In this document: one piece after another, positions 5,505 through 14,047 of the stretch | How positions within the stretch are numbered: position 1 is the first letter of the stretch | How the letters are laid out: each line of letters begins with the position of its first letter | Origin: Capillimicrobium sp. | GTDB taxonomy: Bacteria > Actinomycetota > Thermoleophilia > Solirubrobacterales > Solirubrobacteraceae | Reading direction: 5' to 3' | Assembly (NCBI GenBank): GCA_035565675.1 | Contig: DATMSA010000037.1 | Location: 13,173 to 53,172 of the forward strand | DNA: 40,000 bases | Notes under the pieces: model-generated | Seen by the model: only the letters and a program-made list of their open reading frames with translations | The model's database searches: none | Told to the model about the DNA's origin: nothing | Program-made: the position numbers and the translations under genes

Positions 5505-5903
5505 GTGGCATCGTCCGCGTCGATGAGCGGGGCGGAGCCAGAGCGCGCGGGCGGCGGCGAGTTCGCCGGCGACGCGACCCGCCGCACGTTCCTCGCCAAC
5601 GAGCGCACCCAGCTCGCCTGGTGGCGGACCGGCCTGACGTCGGTCGCCGTCGGGGTCGGCGTCGGCCGCGTCGTGCCCGAGCTGGGCGGCGGCGAGCACT
5701 GGGCCTACGCCGCCGTCGGCGTCGGCTACATCGTCTACGGGCTGCTGTTCGTGCTCGTGGGGACCTGGCGTCAGCGCCAGGTCGAGCGGGCGGTGCTCGA
5801 GCACGGCTGGCGCGCCCAGGACCGCATGATCCTGCTGGCGATGACCGCGGGCGGGGTCGTCCTTGCCCTCGCCACGGCGGCCCTGGTGGTCATCGACGCC
5901 TGA
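5505..5903 (+). CDS. DUF202 (YidH-like) membrane protein
   Basis: Carries the FLANERTQLAWWRTGL motif followed by 3 TM helices. The start is ambiguous (GTG 5505 or ATG 5523). Confidence 0.65.
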   Translation: MASSASMSGAEPERAGGGEFAGDATRRTFLANERTQLAWWRTGLTSVAVGVGVGRVVPELGGGEHWAYAAVGVGYIVYGLLFVLVGTWRQRQVERAVLEHGWRAQDRMILLAMTAGGVVLALATAALVVIDA

Positions 5904-6487
5904 TGGCCGCGCCGACCGCCGACGAGCTGCCCGTCCTGCGCTGCCCCGACGCCGCCGCGTTCGAGGCGTGGATGGAGGCCGAGCACGTGAGCGCGCCCGG
6001 CGTGTGGCTCGAGTTCGCCAAGAAGGCCAGCGGCATCCCGACCGTCACCTATGGCGAGGCGCTCGACATCGCGCTGTGCTTCGGGTGGATCGACGGGCAG
6101 ACGAAGTCGGTCGACGAGACCTGGTACCGCCAGCGCTTCACGCCGCGGCGCACGCGCAGCAGGTGGTCGCTGCGCAACGTCGAGAAGGTCGCGGAGCTGA
6201 TCGCCGCCGGGCGGATGCGCCCGGCCGGCCTGGCCGAGGTCGAGCGCGCGAAGGCCGACGGTCGCTGGGAGGGCGCCTACCCGAGCCCCAGCCGCATCGA
6301 GGTCCCGCCCGACCTGCAGGCCGAGCTGGACGCCGACCCGCAGGCGGCCGCGTCCTTCGCCGCGCTGGACAGCCGGAACCGCTACGCGATCCTCTACCGC
6401 CTGCACGACGCCAAGCGGCCGGAGACCCGTGCGCGGCGCCTGGCGCAGTTCGTCGACACGCTGCGCCGCGGCGAGACGATCGTCTAG
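5903..6487 (+). CDS. YdeI/OmpD-associated family protein
   Basis: ATG 5903 overlaps the preceding stop (TGATG). FEAWMEAEH, GVWLEFAKK, CFGWIDGQ, RFTPRR and NRYAILYRL...AKRPETRARR are typical of this family. Confidence 0.7.
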   Translation: MAAPTADELPVLRCPDAAAFEAWMEAEHVSAPGVWLEFAKKASGIPTVTYGEALDIALCFGWIDGQTKSVDETWYRQRFTPRRTRSRWSLRNVEKVAELIAAGRMRPAGLAEVERAKADGRWEGAYPSPSRIEVPPDLQAELDADPQAAASFAALDSRNRYAILYRLHDAKRPETRARRLAQFVDTLRRGETIV

Positions 6488-6596
6488 CGCCGGCGCTGCG
6501 CCGTACAGACCGAGGCGGTCGGCGGTCTCCGCGGCGCGCGGCGCAGCAGCCTCAATGCCGCCACCGTACGCGCCGGATCCCGGCGTACACGACTTC

Positions 6597-6629
6597 TTCA
6601 CCGAAGCTTCACAGCCGGGTAACGGCGAT
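6597..6629 (+). promoter_or_regulatory. PHO-box-like direct repeats (TTCACC-N5-TTCACA-N5-GTAACG)
   Basis: Hexamers start at 6597, 6608 and 6619 (11-bp phase), about 30 nt upstream of the ATG at 6658. Confidence 0.5.
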
Positions 6630-6657
6630 CGGGCCGCGTCGCGCGAGGGTGGCGGCC

Positions 6658-7011
6658 ATGGAGGCCGCGTCCAACGTGCTGCGCTCGGGCGAGGTGGAGG
6701 TCCACCCGGCCGACGGGCTCGTGCGCGTCGGCGGCCGGGTGGTGGCGATGTCGATGCGCGAGCTGCGGCTGCTGTCCGCGCTCGTGGAGCGCGAGGGACG
6801 CATCGTCTCGCGCGCCGACCTGTACCGCATCGCCTGGGGCGCGCCGCTGCGCGACGGCGACCGCTCGGTCGACGTGTACGTCCACAAGCTGCGCGTGAAG
6901 CTCGAGGAGGCGCTCCCCGGCCACGCGTTCATCCACACCCACTTCGGCTTCGGCTACCGGTTCTCGCCGGAGCCTTCACACGCTTTTCACAACGGCGACC
7001 CCGGGGCCTAG
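6658..7011 (+). CDS. stand-alone OmpR/PhoB-type winged-helix DNA-binding protein (no receiver domain)
   Basis: 117 aa. ATG 6658 is preceded by GAGGGTGG. The sequence L..RE..LL..L....GRIVSR..L....WG.....GDRSVDVYVHKLRVKLEE......IHTHFGFGYRFSPEP is a Trans_reg_C domain closely similar to the C-terminus of the regulator at 12841..13692. The in-frame sequence upstream is not receiver-like. Confidence 0.7.
   Translation: MEAASNVLRSGEVEVHPADGLVRVGGRVVAMSMRELRLLSALVEREGRIVSRADLYRIAWGAPLRDGDRSVDVYVHKLRVKLEEALPGHAFIHTHFGFGYRFSPEPSHAFHNGDPGA
6975..6996 (+). promoter_or_regulatory. PHO-box-like direct repeat (TTCACA-N5-TTCACA)
   Basis: TTCACA occurs at 6975 and 6986. The repeat sits inside the last codons of the wHTH gene, 58 nt upstream of the pstB2 GTG at 7054. 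Confidence 0.55.
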
Positions 7012-7053
7012 CAGCCTGGGCCCGCCACGCGCGGAGACCAAGGAGCTGCCCCC

Positions 7054-7914
7054 GTGACCCCAGGCCAGACCACGCAGATCACCCCGGCGGCGCCCGTGCC
7101 GATGCGACGCGTGCGCCCGGCGGCCGAGGCGCCCGCCGCCCAACCGGCGGCGGCGATCGAGCGCGCCGCCCGGCCGGTGCGCCTCGAGGCGCTGAACGCC
7201 TGGTACGGGTCCCATCACACGGTCAGGGACGTGAGCCTGACGTTCCCGGCCAACGCGGCGACGGCGCTCATCGGCCCGTCGGGCTCGGGCAAGTCGACGG
7301 TCGTGCGGTGCATCAACCGCATGCACGAGGAGATCCGCGGCGCCCGCGCGCAGGGGCGCGTGCTGCTCGACGACGTCGACGTTTACCACCCGAAGGTCGA
7401 CGTCGGCGCGGTGCGGCGCGCGATCGGCATGGTCTTCCAGAAGCCCAACCCGTTCCCGACGATGTCGATCTACGACAACGTCGCCGCCGGCGTGCGCCTC
7501 ACGCAGCGGCGGGTCTCGCGCGACCAGGTCGAGTCGGCGCTGCGGCGCGCGAACCTGTGGGACGAGGTCAAGGACCGCCTCGACCGCCCCGGCCACGGCC
7601 TCTCCGGCGGCCAGCAGCAGCGGCTGTGCATCGCCCGCGCGCTCGCCGTCGAGCCCGAGGTGCTGCTGATGGACGAGCCCGCCTCCGCGCTGGACCCGAT
7701 CTCGACACTGAAGATCGAGGAGCTCGTCCAGGAGCTCAAGCAGCGCCTGACGATCGTGATCGTCACCCACAACATGCAGCAGGCGGCGCGCGTCGCCGAC
7801 CGCACCGCGTTCCTGCTCGACGGGCAGGTCGTCGAGGAGGGGCCGACCGAGACGATCTTCACGGCGCCGCGCGACCGCCGCACCGAGGACTACGTCAGCG
7901 GGCGGTTCGGATGA
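7054..7914 (+). CDS. pstB: phosphate ABC transporter ATP-binding protein, second copy (pstB2)
   Basis: GTG 7054 is preceded by AAGGAG. Walker A is [54 protein letters not shown] and VTHNMQQA are PstB hallmarks, and the protein is similar throughout to the PstB at 11875..12738. Confidence 0.85.
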
Positions 7915-8603
7915 GCGGCACCGGGATGCGCGTCCACTTCCACGAGGAGCTGGCCGCGCTGGAGACGCAGGCGCTCGGCGGCATCGACCTCGTCGTCGGC
8001 CAGCTCGACCGCGTGATGGAGGCGCTCACCCACCAGGACGTCGAGCTCGCCAGCTTCGTCATCGCCGACGACGACCGCCTCGACGGGCGCTACCTGGAGG
8101 TCAACCAGGGGATCCTGTCGCTCCTGGCGCTGCAGGCACCGGTCGCCGGCGACCTGCGCGTCGTCGCGGCACTGCTGCACGTGATCAAGCACGTCGAGCG
8201 CATGGGCGACCAGTGCGTGAACGTCGCCAAGCTCATCCCGCTCGCCGGCCACGAGCCGCCGCGGCTGCCGGAGATCGTCGAGCAGCTCATGCACATGGGT
8301 CAGTTCGCGCGCAGCCAGGCGCTGCAGGCGAAGACGTCGTTCGCCGAGCGCGACGTGGCGCTCGCCCGCGACCTCGTGCGCCAGGACCGAGAGATCAACC
8401 GGCTCAACCGCGAGATCTTCAACACGGCGCTCGCGGTCGGCGACGACCCGGACGTGCGCGAGTGGGCGATGCACATGGTCCTCGTCGCCCGGGCGCTCGA
8501 GCGCATCGGCGACAACGCGGTCGACATCGGCGAGCAGACGGCGTTCGTCGTGACCGGCCTGTTCCGCGAGTTCACCGACTCGTCGGACCACGCCGAGACG
8601 TGA
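7911..8603 (+). CDS. phoU: phosphate signalling complex protein PhoU
   Basis: ATGA overlap with pstB2. Two PhoU repeats are present, with the ERMGD and [12 protein letters not shown] motifs. Confidence 0.9.
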
Positions 8604-8612
8604 GGCCGTACG

Positions 8613-8656
8613 TTCACAGGGCTTTCACACCGCGGCGACAGGTCGGTAACAGGCTG
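8613..8656 (+). promoter_or_regulatory. PHO-box-like array of four 11-bp-phased units (TTCACA, TTCACA, GCGACA, GTAACA)
   Basis: Hexamers start at 8613, 8624, 8635 and 8646. The array ends 60 nt upstream of the pstS TTG at 8717. Confidence 0.6.
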
Positions 8657-8716
8657 CCCGGTGTCGGGGCGCGAGGCTGACCTCGCAACCCCACGAGGAC
8701 GAGAAGGAGCTCTCAG

Positions 8717-9850
8717 TTGAGACCGACACGCACGATCACCGCGCTGGCCCTGTGCGGCGCGCTCGCCGTCGGCGCCGCCGCGTGCGGAGACGACGACGAC
8801 AACGGCAGCACCGGCACCACGGGCGGCGGCGCCGCCACCGCGCAGGCCGCAGCGACGTCGCTGTCGGGCCAGATCGCCGGCGCCGGCGCGAGCTCGCAGG
8901 CGGCCGCGCAGGAGGCGTGGATCGCCGGCTTCCAGACCGCCAACCCCGACGTGACGATCTCCTACGACCCCGTCGGCTCCGGCGGCGGCCGCGAGCAGTT
9001 CGTGGCCGGCGGCACCGCGTTCGGCGGCACCGACTCGGCGCTGGCCGACGAGGAGCTCACCGGCGCCCAGGAGCGCTGCGGCGGCGTCGACAACCTGATC
9101 GAGATCCCGGCCTACGTGTCGCCGATCGCGATCGCCTACAACGTCCCCGGCGTCGAGGAGCTGAAGCTCGCGCCCGAGACGCTGGCCCGGATCTTCAAGC
9201 AGGAGATCAAGAACTGGAACGACCCGGCGATCGCCGCGACGAACGAGGGTGTCGAGCTGCCCGACCAGGCGATCACCGTCGTCAACCGCTCCGACGAGTC
9301 CGGCACGACCGAGAACTTCGTCGAGTACCTCGCCGCCGTCGCCCCCGACGTGTGGACGTTCGAGGTGAGCGGCGACTGGCCCGTGAAGGGCGGCGAGGCG
9401 GCCGAGGGCACGTCCGGCGTCGTGGACGCGATCCGCAACGGCGAGGGCTCGATCGGCTACGCCGACGCCAGCCAGGTCGGCGATCTCGGCGTCGTGCAGG
9501 TGCAGGTCGGCGAGGACTTCGTCGGCCCGACCCCCGAGGCGGCGGCCGAGATCTTCGCCGACTCGGAGCGCACCGAGGGCGAGGGCGCGAACGTGTTCAC
9601 GTACACGCTGAACCGCGAGACGGAGGCCTCGGGCACGTACCCGATCGTGCTCGTGTCCTACCTGATGGCCTGCACGCAGTACGACTCCGCGCAGGAGGCC
9701 GACATCGTCAAGGCCTACCTGAGCTACCTGATCAGCCCGGAGGGCCAGGACGCGGCCGCCCAGGCGGCCGGCTCGGCCCCGATCTCCGACGAGACCCGGG
9801 CGCTGATCCAGCCCGCCATCGACGCGATCGGCGGTGGCTCGGCCTCCTAG
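8717..9850 (+). CDS. pstS: phosphate ABC transporter substrate-binding lipoprotein PstS
   Basis: TTG start preceded by GAAGGAG. A signal peptide with Cys (AVGAAAC) is followed by a low-complexity linker. SGAGASSQ, SYDPVGSGGG, RSDESGTT and GSIGY are PstS motifs. Confidence 0.9.
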   Translation: MRPTRTITALALCGALAVGAAACGDDDDNGSTGTTGGGAATAQAAATSLSGQIAGAGASSQAAAQEAWIAGFQTANPDVTISYDPVGSGGGREQFVAGGTAFGGTDSALADEELTGAQERCGGVDNLIEIPAYVSPIAIAYNVPGVEELKLAPETLARIFKQEIKNWNDPAIAATNEGVELPDQAITVVNRSDESGTTENFVEYLAAVAPDVWTFEVSGDWPVKGGEAAEGTSGVVDAIRNGEGSIGYADASQVGDLGVVQVQVGEDFVGPTPEAAAEIFADSERTEGEGANVFTYTLNRETEASGTYPIVLVSYLMACTQYDSAQEADIVKAYLSYLISPEGQDAAAQAAGSAPISDETRALIQPAIDAIGGGSAS

Positions 9851-9890: not shown

Positions 9891-10844
9891 ATGAGCGCCA
9901 CACCCCACACGACCAGCCTCGCCGCTCGTCGCCGTCGTGGCGTGCGCGGCGCCGGCGACCGAATGTTCGCCGGCGCCGCCGTCGGGGCCGGGGCCGTCAT
10001 CCTGGCCCTGCTGGGCGGGGTGGCCGTCTTCCTGCTCGTGAAGGCGTGGCCGGCCATCACCGCCGACGCCGACGAGATCCCCGGCGACGGCGGCCTGCTG
10101 TCCTACATCTGGCCGCTCGCCTTCGGCACGCTGCTGGCCGCGGTCCTCGCGATCCTCATCGCGGTGCCGATGGCCGTCGGCGTGTCGCTGTTCATCAGCC
10201 ACTACGCGCCGCGCTGGCTCGCCCAGCCGCTCGGCTACGTCGTCGACCTCCTCGCCGCGGTGCCCAGCATCGTCTACGGCCTGTGGGGCATCGCGGTGCT
10301 CGGCCCCGCCTCGGTCGACCTCCTGCGCTGGCTGCAGGACAACCTCGGCTTCCTGCCGTTCTTCGTCGGCCCCGCGTCGGCCACCGGCCGCACGATGCTC
10401 GTCGTCGGCGTGGTCCTCGCGGTGATGATCCTGCCGATCATCTGCGCCGTGACGCGCGAGGTGTTCTCGCAGACGCCGCGGTCGCAGATCGAGGGCGCGC
10501 TCGCGCTCGGCGCCACCCGCTGGGAGATGATGCGGATGACCGTCCTGCCGTTCGGGCGCTCGGCGATCATCGGCGGGTCGATGCTCGGCCTCGGCCGCGC
10601 GCTGGGCGAGACCATGGCCGTCGCGATCATCCTGTCGGTCTCCGGCGGGGTGACGGTCAACCTGATCAGCTCCGGCAACCCGTCGACGATCGCCGCGAAC
10701 ATCGCGCTGGACTTCCCCGAGTCGTCCGGGCTGGGCGTGAACGTGCTGATCGCCTCCGGCCTCGTGCTGTTCGCGATCACGCTGGTCGTCAACATGGCCG
10801 CGCGCGCGGTCATCGAGCGCACCGAGCGGGCGAGGCGCGCATGA
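9891..10844 (+). CDS. pstC: phosphate ABC transporter permease PstC
   Basis: ATG 9891 follows AGAGGA. Multi-TM protein with the EAA-type loop [18 protein letters not shown]. Confidence 0.9.
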
Positions 10845-11878
10845 GCACCCTGGACGTCATGCGGCCGTCGCTGCCCTCCTGGGGGCCGTGGGCGCCGCCG
10901 GCCGCCGCGCTGGCGGCCGCCGTCGCGCTGGCGATCGCCACCGACATCGGCACGGGCGTGCTCCTCGTCGGCGCGGTCGTCGTCGCGGCCGCCGTCGTGT
11001 ACGCGTGGTCGCGGGTCGTCGAGGGCGGCCGGCGCGCGCTGGACCGGCTCGTGACCGTGCTCGTCGCCTCCGCGTTCGCGCTCGCGGTCATCCCGCTGAT
11101 CTCGGTGCTCTACACCGTGATCGTCAAGGGCGCCGAGCGCTTCGACTGGGCGTTCTTCACGGAGACCGGCCGCAACGTCGTCGGCGCGGGCGGCGGCGCG
11201 TGGCACGCGATCGTCGGCACGCTCGTCATCACCGGCGTGGCGACCGTCGCCTCGGTGCCGATCGGGATCATGGCCGCGATCTACCTGCAGGAGTACGGGC
11301 AGGGGCGGCTGAAGCGGTGGCTCACGTTCTTCGTCGACGTGATGACCGGCATCCCCTCGATCGTCGCCGGCCTGTTCGCGTTCGCGCTGTTCGCGATCTT
11401 CTTCGGGCCCGGCGTGCGCATGGGCGTCATGGGCGCCGTCGCGCTGTCGGTCCTGATGATCCCGATCGTCGTGCGCTCGACCGAGGAGATGCTGAAGGTC
11501 GTGCCCAACGGGCTGCGCGAGGCGTCGTACGCGCTGGGCGTGCCGAAGTGGCGCACGGTCGTGAGCGTCGTCCTGCCGACGGCGCTGGCCGGCATCGTCA
11601 CGGGCGTGATGGTCGCCGTCGCGCGGGTGATCGGCGAGACCGCGCCGCTGCTGATCACCACCGGCACGATCACCAGCCTCAACGCGAACCCGTTCAGCGG
11701 CCGCATGGAGCCGCTGCCGGTGTACGCCTACAGCCAGTACAAGCACCCGGGCGTCCCGCCCGAGCCGTACTTCGCGCGCGCGTGGGCGGCGGCGCTGACG
11801 CTGATCGCCATCGTCATGCTGCTGAACCTCGTCGCGCGGCTCATCTACAAGCGCTTCGGCACGGAGATCCGCGGATGA
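10841..11878 (+). CDS. pstA: phosphate ABC transporter permease PstA
   Basis: ATGA overlap with pstC. Carries [22 protein letters not shown] and GETAPLL. Confidence 0.9.
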
Positions 11879-12738
11879 CCGAGCACGCATCGACCGCCGC
11901 CGGCGAGGCCGCGGCCACCGCCGCCCCGCGCGGCGGCGCCGCCACGGTGGAGGCCGTCGCGGCCAAGGCCGTCGAGGTCAGCGACCTGAACCTGTACTAC
12001 GGCGACTTCCACGCCGTGAAGGACGTCAACCTGCGCATCGAGCCCAACGCGGTGACGGCGCTGATCGGCTCCTCCGGCTGCGGCAAGTCGACGTTCCTGC
12101 GCTCGCTGAACCGCATGCACGAGCTGGTGCCGGGCGGCCGGGTCGAGGGGTCGATCCGCCTCGACGGCGACGACATCTACGCCCCCGACGTCGACCCGGT
12201 CGCCGTGCGGCGGCAGATCGGCATGGTCTTCCAGGCGCCCAACCCGTTCCCGACGATGTCGATCTACGACAACGTCGCGGCCGGGCTGAAGCTCACGCGC
12301 CGCCGGCGCGACCGGGCGGGTCTCGACGAGATCGTCGAGCGCTCGCTGCGCCAGGCGCACCTGTGGGACGAGGTCAAGGACCGCCTCGACAGGCCCGGCA
12401 TCGGGCTCTCCGGCGGCCAGCAGCAGCGGCTGTGCATCGCCCGCACGATCGCCGTGGAGCCCGAGGTCGTGCTGATGGACGAGCCCGCGTCCGCGCTGGA
12501 CCCGATCTCGACGCTCGCGATCGAGGACCTCATGATCGAGCTCAAGGAGCGCTACACGATCGTGATCGTCACCCACAACATGCAGCAGGCGGGGCGGGCG
12601 AGCGACTACACCGCGTTCTTCAACATCGCGGGCGTCGGCGAGCCCGGGATGCTCGTCGAGTTCGACACCACCGAGAAGATCTTCTCCAACCCCTCCGAGC
12701 CCGCCACCGAGGACTACATCAGCGGACGGTTCGGCTGA
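11875..12738 (+). CDS. pstB: phosphate ABC transporter ATP-binding protein PstB
   Basis: ATGA overlap with pstA. Walker A is GSSGCGKST, with the signature [13 protein letters not shown] and C-terminal [10 protein letters not shown]. Confidence 0.92.
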
Positions 12739-12771: not shown

Positions 12772-12793
12772 TGTGAACGAGCTGTGATCATCG
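12772..12793 (-). promoter_or_regulatory. PHO-box-like repeat in inverted orientation (TGTGAA-N5-TGTGAT on + strand)
   Basis: Hexamers at 12772 and 12783 are 11 bp apart and read ATCACA/TTCACA on the minus strand. The site lies between the pstB stop and the regulator start. Confidence 0.4.
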
Positions 12794-12840
12794 CGCCCGC
12801 GCCCCTTGCCGCCGCCCCGGCGGGGACTAAGCTGCGGGGC

Positions 12841-13692
12841 ATGGTCGAAGGAACGCCGGGCGAGCCCCACGGGCACGCACAGGAGGGGCCGGCGGGCGCG
12901 CCGTTGCGTCTCGCCGTCCTGGATCGCGACAGCGGGTTCCTGCAGGTGCTCGGCAAGCGGCTCGATCGCCTCGGCTGGGAGCACCGCGTCCTGGCCAGCC
13001 CCGTGTCGTCCGACGCGCTCGTCTCGATGCGCCTCAGCGCGATCGTCGTCGACCTGGCGATCCTCGGCCCGCAGGCGTGGGAGTGGCTGGAGCGCACGTG
13101 CGCCGCCCTGCCCGGCCTCGGCGTGGTCGTGTGCACCGGGCAGTCGACGGTCGCCCAGCGGGTGCGGGGCCTGCGCGCCGGCGCCGACGACTGGGTGACC
13201 AAGCCGTGCCATCCCGAGGAGGTCATCGCCCGCGTCGAGTCGGTGGTGCGCCGCCGCCGCCGCGCGGAGGCCCGCGTCGACGTCGAGCCGGTCGTGGCCG
13301 GCGAGGTCGAGATCCGCGCCGACCAGTTCCAGGCGTTCGTGGGCGACCGCTCGGTCGACCTCACCCGCCGCGAGTTCGAGCTCATCGAGCTGCTGGCTGC
13401 CGCCCGCGGCCGCGTGCTCGAGCGCGAGGAGATCTACCAGCGCGTGTGGGGCTACGCGATGGCCCGCGGCGACCGCTCGGTCGACGTGTTCGTGCGCAAG
13501 CTGCGCCAGAAGCTCGAGAAGGCCTCGCCGAACTGGCGCTACATCCACACCCACTTCGGGATCGGCTACCGCTTCGCGCCCGAGCCGGTCGAGGGCGCGG
13601 AGGTCGTGACGCCCGTGGCCGAGGCCGTGGCGCGCGAGGCGGCCGAGTCCGCCGAGACGGCGGCCGCGGCGGCCGAGTCCGTCTATCGTTGA
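12841..13692 (+). CDS. OmpR/PhoB-family response regulator (receiver + winged helix), orphan
   Basis: The receiver has LAVLDRD, the acceptor context AIVVDLAILG, VVCTG and VTKP. The DNA-binding domain has LTRREFELIELL and GDRSVDVFVRKLRQKLE..IHTHFGIGYRF. The start is uncertain (GTG 12784 or ATG 12841). No histidine kinase is present in the window. Confidence 0.8.
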   Translation: MVEGTPGEPHGHAQEGPAGAPLRLAVLDRDSGFLQVLGKRLDRLGWEHRVLASPVSSDALVSMRLSAIVVDLAILGPQAWEWLERTCAALPGLGVVVCTGQSTVAQRVRGLRAGADDWVTKPCHPEEVIARVESVVRRRRRAEARVDVEPVVAGEVEIRADQFQAFVGDRSVDLTRREFELIELLAAARGRVLEREEIYQRVWGYAMARGDRSVDVFVRKLRQKLEKASPNWRYIHTHFGIGYRFAPEPVEGAEVVTPVAEAVAREAAESAETAAAAAESVYR

Positions 13693-13696
13693 CGGC

Positions 13697-14047
13697 GTGA
13701 AGCACGTCCGCAACTTCGCGATCGTCGCGGTCCTGGCGTTCGGCGTCTACGCCCTGCCGGGCGGGGACACGGCCGCCGACCTGTTCGGCGCCACGCTGTT
13801 CGTGATCCTGACGATCGGGATCGGCCTGCTGGCCGCGCGCCTGTACCGCGAGCGCCGCTTCGACATCGAGGCGCTCGGCGACCGCTGGCGGCTCGTGCTG
13901 TACGGGGCGCTGGGCGCGATCGTGCTCGCGCTGGCCGCCTCCCCGGAGCTGTTCGACACCGGCCTGGGGACCGTCGCGTGGATCGCGATCATGGCCGCGT
14001 GCGTCTACGCGCTCGTGCGCGTGTTCCGCCACGCGCGCGAGTACTGA
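13697..14047 (+). CDS. hypothetical membrane protein
   Basis: 116 aa with about 4 TM helices. GTG 13697 lies 4 nt after the regulator stop. I recognise no family. Confidence 0.45.
   Translation: MKHVRNFAIVAVLAFGVYALPGGDTAADLFGATLFVILTIGIGLLAARLYRERRFDIEALGDRWRLVLYGALGAIVLALAASPELFDTGLGTVAWIAIMAACVYALVRVFRHAREY

Follow-up and report, generated by a model that had tools for sequence, protein, structure and literature searches.

In the OmpR/PhoB family of response regulators, it is normally the receiver domain that acts as the switch. The described systems closest to the one reported here are PhoB of Escherichia coli, PhoP of Streptomyces and Bacillus, and RegX3 of mycobacteria, in which the effector domain is combined with tandem 11-bp direct-repeat boxes over the -35 region of pst promoters and with linkage to pstSCAB and phoU. 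PhoP has also been reduced to its DNA-binding domain (DBD), and such engineered truncations (GST-PhoP-DBD of Streptomyces, PMC2275107; DBD-only PhoP of Mycobacterium tuberculosis, PMC11825685) bind PHO boxes constitutively and cooperatively. In this work, we analyzed a stretch of 40,000 nucleotides (nt) of Capillimicrobium sp., order Solirubrobacterales (contig DATMSA010000037.1, positions 13,173 to 53,172 of the forward strand), referred to as the window, in which a gene at 6658-7011, at the head of a pst cluster, encodes a receiver-less protein of 117 amino acids (aa), called the small protein below. With moderate confidence, we regard it as a Pho-induced, phosphorylation-independent PHO-box binder, probably a non-activating competitor or feedback element.

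The small protein has the same effector-domain fold as PhoB, PhoP and RegX3, but it differs from them in lacking the receiver, and with it the phosphorylation switch and receiver-mediated dimerisation, and in coexisting with a full-length paralogue in one cluster. It starts at the same linker/domain boundary as the engineered truncations; unlike them, it is natural, separately encoded, conserved and provided with a PHO-box promoter of its own. NnaR of Streptomyces and mycobacteria is also a receiver-less OmpR-type winged helix, its gene is a target of the OmpR-family master regulator GlnR, and it shares promoters with GlnR (PMC6277429, PMC12632262); however, NnaR possesses an N-terminal HemD-like domain, is not a close paralogue of the GlnR DBD and serves nitrogen control. 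OmpR-type winged helices without a receiver are likewise present in Streptomyces antibiotic regulatory proteins (SARPs; AfsR, ActII-ORF4), ToxR, CadC and TcpP, but there they are accompanied by BTAD, NB-ARC or transmembrane/periplasmic sensor modules, whereas the small protein has no second domain. Receiver-less OmpR-type proteins as such are already known; the new element is the combination, which was not found described, of a domain-only paralogue placed beside its full-length parent, inside the Pho regulon, order-wide and with a distinctive promoter of its own. In the full-text literature, neither a receiver-less PhoP/PhoB paralogue in a pst cluster nor anything on Pho regulation in Solirubrobacterales was found, and the search yielded analogies only, i.e., NnaR, the DBD truncations and competitive occlusion by M. 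tuberculosis PhoP.

The gene, its ribosome-binding site and the full-length paralogue (the regulator below) are the following:

6658 (ATG)-7011 (TAG), + strand: small receiver-less OmpR/PhoB-type winged-helix gene, 117 aa (list of open reading frames (ORFs), Pfam, BLASTP)
6645..6652, + strand: Shine-Dalgarno-like GAGGGTGG, 5 nt 5' of the small-gene ATG
12784..13692, + strand: full-length OmpR-family regulator, 302 aa, the parent paralogue (Pfam Trans_reg_C, 85 bits)

The Pfam scan of the small protein revealed Trans_reg_C (PF00486) alone, at residues 27-102, covering model positions 2-77 of 77 with E 7e-19 and 68.1 bits (gathering cut-off 26.2). The AlphaFold2 model (predicted local distance difference test (pLDDT) 89, predicted template modelling (TM) score 0.81) comprises strands at residues 8-24, helices at 33-44, 52-60 and 70-85, and a hairpin at 89-106, i.e., a folded domain of residues 8-106 followed by a disordered tail (107-117). 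Foldseek matched this model to the DBDs of PrrA, RstA, PhoP and PhoB with probability 1.00 and TM 0.8-0.9 on the target. The product is therefore a member of the OmpR/PhoB effector-domain family. As Response_reg gave no match, it is not a response regulator, and control by a PhoR-type histidine kinase would find no receiver to accept the phosphate; as it has no second domain (BTAD, a transmembrane/periplasmic sensor and a HemD-like domain were all missing from the 117 aa in the Pfam analysis), it is neither a SARP nor a ToxR/CadC-type or NnaR-type protein. Consequently for annotation, such small genes should not be labelled 'response regulator'.

A receiver is not encodable 5' of the small gene. 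The domain starts its first strand after only seven residues, the gap separating the gene from the OmdA/YdeI gene (5903-6487) measures 170 nt, the latter gene lies in another frame, and the open frame running back to 5845 is merely an Arg/Ala-rich, out-of-frame translation of it. The stop-to-stop frame containing the small gene reaches 388 aa in this GC-rich DNA; in the single-contig assemblies G004, G018 and G024, the corresponding open frames have 117-131 aa and no receiver upstream, and no receiver-like sequence was found in frame upstream of the small gene in 80 further species. A few tblastn extensions of the regulator into the upstream region (20-60 residues) were considered as receiver relics and rejected, for they are gap-rich and of low complexity, overlap PHO-box DNA and, in one instance, cross a stop codon.

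The relationship with the regulator is close. In BLASTP, 47 of 97 residues (48%) are identical between the small protein and regulator residues 172-268 (E 9e-30), and identity rises to 29 of 40 (72%) over the recognition helix and wing (GDRSVDV...PEP). When the small protein was used to search its own genome, the regulator was the best match (47% identity), and the other OmpR-type proteins were at most 35% identical. Both paralogues have the motifs DRSVDV(Y/F)V(H/R)KLRxKL and IHTHxGxGYRF, in place of which the other OmpR paralogues of the genome have sequences of the TVDVHIRRLR and TVRGVGYRF types. In the phylogenetic tree, the small proteins form one clade (support 99/94) and group with the cluster regulators (100/99), apart from seven other OmpR-type domains of the genome. 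The two subtrees branch in parallel (the trio of family f3, the pair of G024 and G023, and the genus clade are recovered in each), which indicates that the DBD part of the Pho-cluster regulator was duplicated once, long ago, to give the small gene, and that vertical descent followed. Regulator branches are two to three times shorter than those of the small proteins.

Additional regulator-type DBD copies were observed in two relatives: one in G020 (L026, 3635-3937), about 0.8 kb upstream of the small gene, and three in G156 (contig C100, 1096-2930), within 2 kb and close to the small gene. Duplication of the regulator-type DBD has therefore recurred.

Orthologues of the small gene were searched for in the genomes of 40 relatives, then in a wider sample of the class, and then in 80 further species. 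The small proteins are 73-83% identical in seven of eight congeners, 55-65% identical across the family and 54-62% identical in a second family (f3). Across Solirubrobacterales, orthologues of about 117-130 aa stand first in the pst cluster, and their stop-to-stop frames in the 40 relatives, single-contig assemblies included, mostly have 117-160 aa. In the wider class sample, clear orthologues were confined to the order, with divergent short copies in two or three other families; among the genomes searched outside the order, only full-length regulators were present. The protein database contains thousands of small homologues, the best 120 of which all have 111-152 aa and PF00486 only and, where named, belong to Solirubrobacterales (Capillimicrobium, Baekduia). 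A pattern scan found a relative in at least 582 species genomes, among them the cultured Solirubrobacter soli, S. taibaiensis, S. phytolaccae and S. deserti. Most Solirubrobacterales have retained the gene at the head of the pst cluster. Within the genus, the ratio of nonsynonymous to synonymous substitution rates (dN/dS; codons 8-104) ranges from 0.10 to 0.47 with a median of 0.26, pointing to purifying selection that is looser than on the regulator. The start codon and GCGCGAGGGTG of the ribosome-binding site are conserved in congeners.

These results bear on an earlier note on this DNA, which had described the product as an OmpR/PhoB winged helix alone, nearly the same in its recognition and wing region as the regulator about 6 kb downstream; both statements agree with the full Trans_reg_C match and the alignment given above. 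The note had also asked for a survey of relatives that would tell a conserved gene from a recent fragment and had named a receiver encoded upstream in better assemblies as a refutation. The survey returned a conserved gene forming one clade, and no such receiver came to light either in single-contig assemblies or in the 80 further species.

The second line of evidence comes from the promoters. The pattern TTCAC-N6-TTCAC with at most one mismatch occurs six times in the window (0.43 expected), a number reached in none of 100 shuffles, and its exact copies are at 6597, 6975 and 8613. They belong to three promoters:

6586..6623, + strand: small-gene promoter, 11-bp direct repeats TACACGACTTC, TTCACCGAAGC and TTCACAGCCGG, then GTAAC (6619-6623, -10-like)
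6975..7014, + strand: pstB1-phoU PHO-box promoter, strong units TTCACACGCTT and TTCACAACGGC, one weak unit, then CTAGCAG
8613..8652, + strand: pstS PHO-box promoter, TTCACAGGGCT, TTCACACCGCG and GCGACAGGTCG, then GTAACAG

The box at 6597, with a TACAC unit ahead of it at 6586, is located 61 nt before the small-gene ATG, while that at 6975 lies within the final codons of the small ORF and precedes the pstB GTG (7054) by 79 nt. The whole 4.6-Mb assembly contains seven exact copies (about 0.8 expected from base composition), five of which precede phosphate genes, i.e., the small gene, pstB-phoU, pstS, ppk1 and phoX. The TTCAC unit also fits the actinobacterial PHO direct-repeat consensus GG/TTCAYYYRG/CG (PMC2275107). 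In all respects visible from sequence, the TTCAC repeats are PHO boxes. The PHO-like box proposed earlier upstream of the gene is present as an exact copy, as is the second one placed in its 3' end, which we can now describe more precisely as the promoter of the next operon, read through by the ORF; the proposal that the TTCACA repeats are PHO boxes gains from the copies before ppk1 and phoX.

To compare the promoters among genomes, the conserved (G/A)TAAC was taken as an anchor and each 11-bp unit was scored against TTCAC (maximum match of 5). At the small gene's own promoter, the mean match in 20 related genomes was 4.65, 4.85 and 4.6 for units -3, -2 and -1, respectively, and three strong units with (G/A)TAAC were present in 20/20. 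At the pst promoter, where the anchor reads (G/A)TAACAG, the corresponding means in the 17 genomes with the anchor were 4.7, 4.8 and 2.4, the last unit being xxxAC only. Among the 80 further species, a score of at least 4/5 was reached by all three units in 75% of the small-gene promoters of 72 species, and by the third unit in no more than 1.4% of pst promoters. A distance of 17 bp separates the second TTCACA of the pst promoter from the TAACAG downstream of it; a -35-like hexamer with a weak -10 at such spacing is the PhoB-type promoter geometry. From this geometry we infer that the small-gene promoter would carry an extra high-affinity repeat inside the -35/-10 spacer. The scan of 6400-8800 found no intrinsic terminator, and thus none between the small gene and the next operon.

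A related arrangement was observed in G145, a genome of another order of the same class, where three TTCAC units and TTAAC (L048, 12905-12960, - strand) stand before a pst cluster without the small gene; this type of box therefore predates the small gene.

The C-terminal tail of the small protein is encoded by DNA of the promoter that follows. In relatives, the element TTCAC, TTCAC, xxxAC, GTAACAG precedes pstS, and the TAA of GTAACAG is the stop codon of the small ORF; here, the stop TAG (7009-7011) falls in the -10-like CTAGCAG of the pstB1-phoU promoter. The orthologues share a tail SHxFH(K/N/I) with a stop about six codons further on, SHxFH being the in-frame translation of TTCACAnnnnnTTCACA and the stop being the TAA/TAG of the GTAACAG element. 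A functional SHxFH motif was considered and rejected: the peptide is translated TTCACAnnnnnTTCACA, is missing in G004 and G002, where the ORF ends before the box and leaves it intergenic, and is predicted to be disordered (pLDDT of the tail about 46). As the ORF reads through the pst box, the tail is translated promoter DNA and should be recognised as such in annotation; in GC-rich DNA, the frame runs on to the first AT-rich element. Such a tail, like the long stop-to-stop frames of this GC-rich DNA (388 aa here), would also be expected if the ORF were an annotation artefact or what is left, without function, of a response-regulator gene that was truncated. Order-wide orthologues with dN/dS of about 0.26, a conserved start codon and ribosome-binding site, a complete and confidently predicted fold and the lack of a receiver relic upstream leave this explanation a practically negligible probability.

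Comparison of the paralogues by region showed which parts have been kept. The pairwise identity among small proteins, among regulators, and between the small protein and the regulator of the same genome was 0.76, 0.90 and 0.68 in helix 3; 0.71, 0.88 and 0.68 in the wing; 0.60, 0.82 and 0.40 in helix 1; 0.63, 0.91 and 0.52 in helix 2; and 0.56, 0.89 and 0.39 in the helix 2-3 loop. Outside helix 3 and the wing, identity between the two proteins is 0.25-0.52. The paralogues do not differ at Ser70, Val73, Lys77 and Arg79 or in the IHTH wing, which are the putative base-reading positions when mapped onto the PhoB-DNA contacts (PDB 1GXP). In the activation complexes of M. tuberculosis PhoP, RNA polymerase is engaged at the beta flap and sigma region 4 by the first helix of the DBD and its C-terminal loop, and at the alpha subunit by the receivers; PhoP cut to its DBD activates poorly (PMC11825685). 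Judged by this pattern, the small protein appears to keep the DNA contact and to relax the polymerase-facing surfaces, Arg65 excepted. The expectation of the earlier note that the small protein recognises the same boxes is supported indirectly, since the helix and wing residues are common to the two paralogues and not to other OmpR proteins.

The following mechanism is proposed. The small protein would bind the 11-bp TTCAC direct repeats without phosphorylation, and these would be the same PHO boxes because the recognition helix and wing of the parent have been kept; we consider such PHO-box binding quite likely. In phosphate starvation, the regulator would induce the small gene, as the promoter of the latter is a PHO-box promoter. 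The small protein would then be mainly a non-activating occupant of PHO boxes, given the poorly conserved, apparently relaxed RNA-polymerase-facing surfaces, the third strong repeat in the spacer and the lack of receiver-mediated dimerisation, acting either as a competitor of the phosphorylated regulator or as an extension of the arrays that the latter forms. Autoregulation would come first, through the spacer repeat of the small-gene promoter; at higher dose the small protein would reach the weak third unit of pst promoters, giving a delayed negative feedback. Competitive occlusion at shared boxes is documented for OmpR-family proteins, in the case of M. tuberculosis PhoP (PMC11825685). Because the gene encodes only the DNA-binding half of a regulator, the phosphate-starvation response is probably subject to a further level of control that does not depend on a kinase. 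A competitor or feedback element is more likely than an activator, the sign of the effect being deduced from the features above; that the net effect is negative is suggested tentatively, at slightly less than an even chance.

Several observations weigh against this proposal. The recognition helix differs consistently between the small protein and the regulator (Tyr74 versus Phe, and mostly His76 versus Arg); Tyr74 and His76 presumably contact the DNA backbone, by the PhoB mapping, so specificity or affinity may differ. At position 65, in the helix 2-3 loop, the small proteins invariably have Arg where the regulator has Ala; instead of belonging to a relaxed surface, this residue might indicate a protein contact that is new and specific. 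The assignment of GTAAC as a -10 element rests on the 17-bp spacing geometry, and it ends in G where T is usual; no consensus sigma-70 promoter was found by the scan of 6400-8800. Finally, the isolated DBD of E. coli PhoB reportedly activates transcription (work of Ellison and McCleary from 2000), which makes a positive role plausible.

Such a positive role would be that of a co-regulator or feed-forward amplifier, the free domain sitting at PHO boxes beside or instead of the phosphorylated regulator, helping to recruit RNA polymerase and allowing pst expression to be maintained or remembered independently of a kinase. The small protein has retained the residues flanking the transactivation loop (Trp60-Gly61 and Asp68), the gene is co-oriented with pst with no terminator between, and analogies are at hand: in Streptomyces, binding by the PhoP DBD is constitutive and better than that of full-length PhoP (PMC2275107), and NnaR, encoded by a GlnR target gene, is the precedent for a receiver-less OmpR-type protein cooperating with the master regulator at promoters (PMC6277429, PMC12632262). 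However, the small protein is least conserved at the surfaces that contact RNA polymerase in the solved activation complexes, M. tuberculosis PhoP truncated to the DBD activates less (PMC11825685), and sister genomes in which the small gene is missing have an identical pst promoter; we regard a positive role as possible but rather unlikely.

The fixed differences in the recognition helix (Tyr74/Phe, His76/Arg and Val80/Gln in small protein/regulator), together with the faster evolution of the small protein, could alternatively mean that its specificity has diverged and that it regulates targets outside the Pho regulon, adjacency to pst being historical. We consider this very improbable, as the two paralogues agree at the presumed base-reading positions, the small gene has a PHO-box promoter in 20/20 genomes, and synteny with pst is conserved across the order.

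If competition or cooperation at PHO boxes is confirmed, the small protein would be a simple, natural domain-only paralogue tuning the output of a two-component system (feedback, dampening or memory), and it would explain how the phosphate-starvation response is shaped by a regulator without an adjacent kinase. Solirubrobacterales are abundant soil actinobacteria, and a DBD truncation of the type made in the laboratory is encoded naturally across the whole order, inside the regulon on which it likely acts.

The neighbouring genes of the small gene and the regulator in the window are the following:

5505-5903, + strand: DUF202 membrane protein
5903-6487, + strand: OmdA/YdeI protein (Pfam)
7054 (GTG)-7914, + strand: PstB-type ABC ATPase, first copy (ABC_tran)
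7911..8603, + strand: PhoU (Pfam PhoU, E 2e-38), its start overlapping the pstB stop (ATGA)
8717-9850, + strand: pstS
9834/9891-10844, + strand: pstC
10841-11878, + strand: pstA
11875-12738, + strand: pstB, second copy
13697-14047, following the regulator gene: small membrane protein, 116 aa, with a weak DUF202-like match

The small gene is thus linked to pstSCAB, phoU and PHO boxes at promoters, as is characteristic of the Pho regulon. Synteny was inspected in 19 relatives, from each of which 10-14 kb were fetched, and 17 of them have the order small gene, pstS, pstC, pstA, pstB, phoU, regulator and small membrane protein. An extra pstB-phoU pair between the small gene and pstS, and hence two pstB copies, was found in this genome and G006 only; most relatives have one pstB, followed by phoU, downstream of pstA. 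In the 80 further species, pstS lies at most 450 nt downstream of the small gene in 64. Family f3 has the regulator gene in divergent orientation, immediately beside the small gene, and in G162 of the sister family f4 the order is regulator, three repeats with GTAAC, small gene and pstS. Two other f4 genomes do not have the small gene, and the usual pst promoter stands directly 3' of the regulator gene. Since these sister genomes keep the same pst promoter, the small protein would be an accessory modulator and not an obligatory partner.

The position of pstB-phoU directly 3' of the small gene in this genome and G006 could also be read in another way, namely that a non-receiver partner of the PhoU/PstB type gates DNA binding of the small protein via the Arg65 surface and that, on PHO operators of four units, the small protein joins the phosphorylated regulator in mixed head-to-tail arrays; the small protein would then be the output of a second, kinase-independent route of phosphate signalling. 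Arg65 is invariant and specific to the small protein, and no kinase gene adjoins the regulator or lies within the pst cluster in any relative examined, both of which would suit such gating. In most relatives, however, phoU is found beside the regulator gene, some 5 kb from the small gene, and we regard partner gating as improbable.

As for the kinase, a TIGR02966 search of the genome for a PhoR-like protein returned generic histidine kinases only, none of which reached the cut-off of the family and most of which have another regulator as their partner. The regulator itself gave a Response_reg match of 29.1 bits, just below the Pfam cut-off of 30.2; in 18 orthologues, the acceptor Asp (VVVDL), Thr (VVCTG) and Lys (TKPCHPEE) of its unusual receiver are conserved, and the acidic pocket is D-x-D, where x varies among R, T, A, S and N. 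Translation of the regulator probably starts at ATG 12841. An inverted box with one mismatch, ATCACAGCTCGTTCAC (12773-12788, - strand), overlaps GTG 12784 and lies 53 nt before ATG 12841; it could be an autoregulatory site of the regulator or a chance match.

Outside the window, the ppk1 box is on contig C14 near 15102 (- strand), where ppk1 (PP_kinase_N, E 4e-31) is preceded by a CHAD-like gene, and the phoX box is on contig C204 near 9252 (- strand), before a gene for a Tat-signal PhoX alkaline phosphatase (PhoX, E 3e-22). The putative Pho regulon therefore reaches beyond the window. The remaining two exact boxes precede an FAD oxidase gene and a TIM-barrel isomerase-like gene. A composite motif (two TTCAC units and GTA[AG]C in phase), tried as a means to define a larger regulon, was set aside, as it occurs in this cluster only.

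The 116-aa membrane protein is present 3' of the regulator in nearly all relatives examined and is apparently a conserved, uncharacterised member of the cluster.

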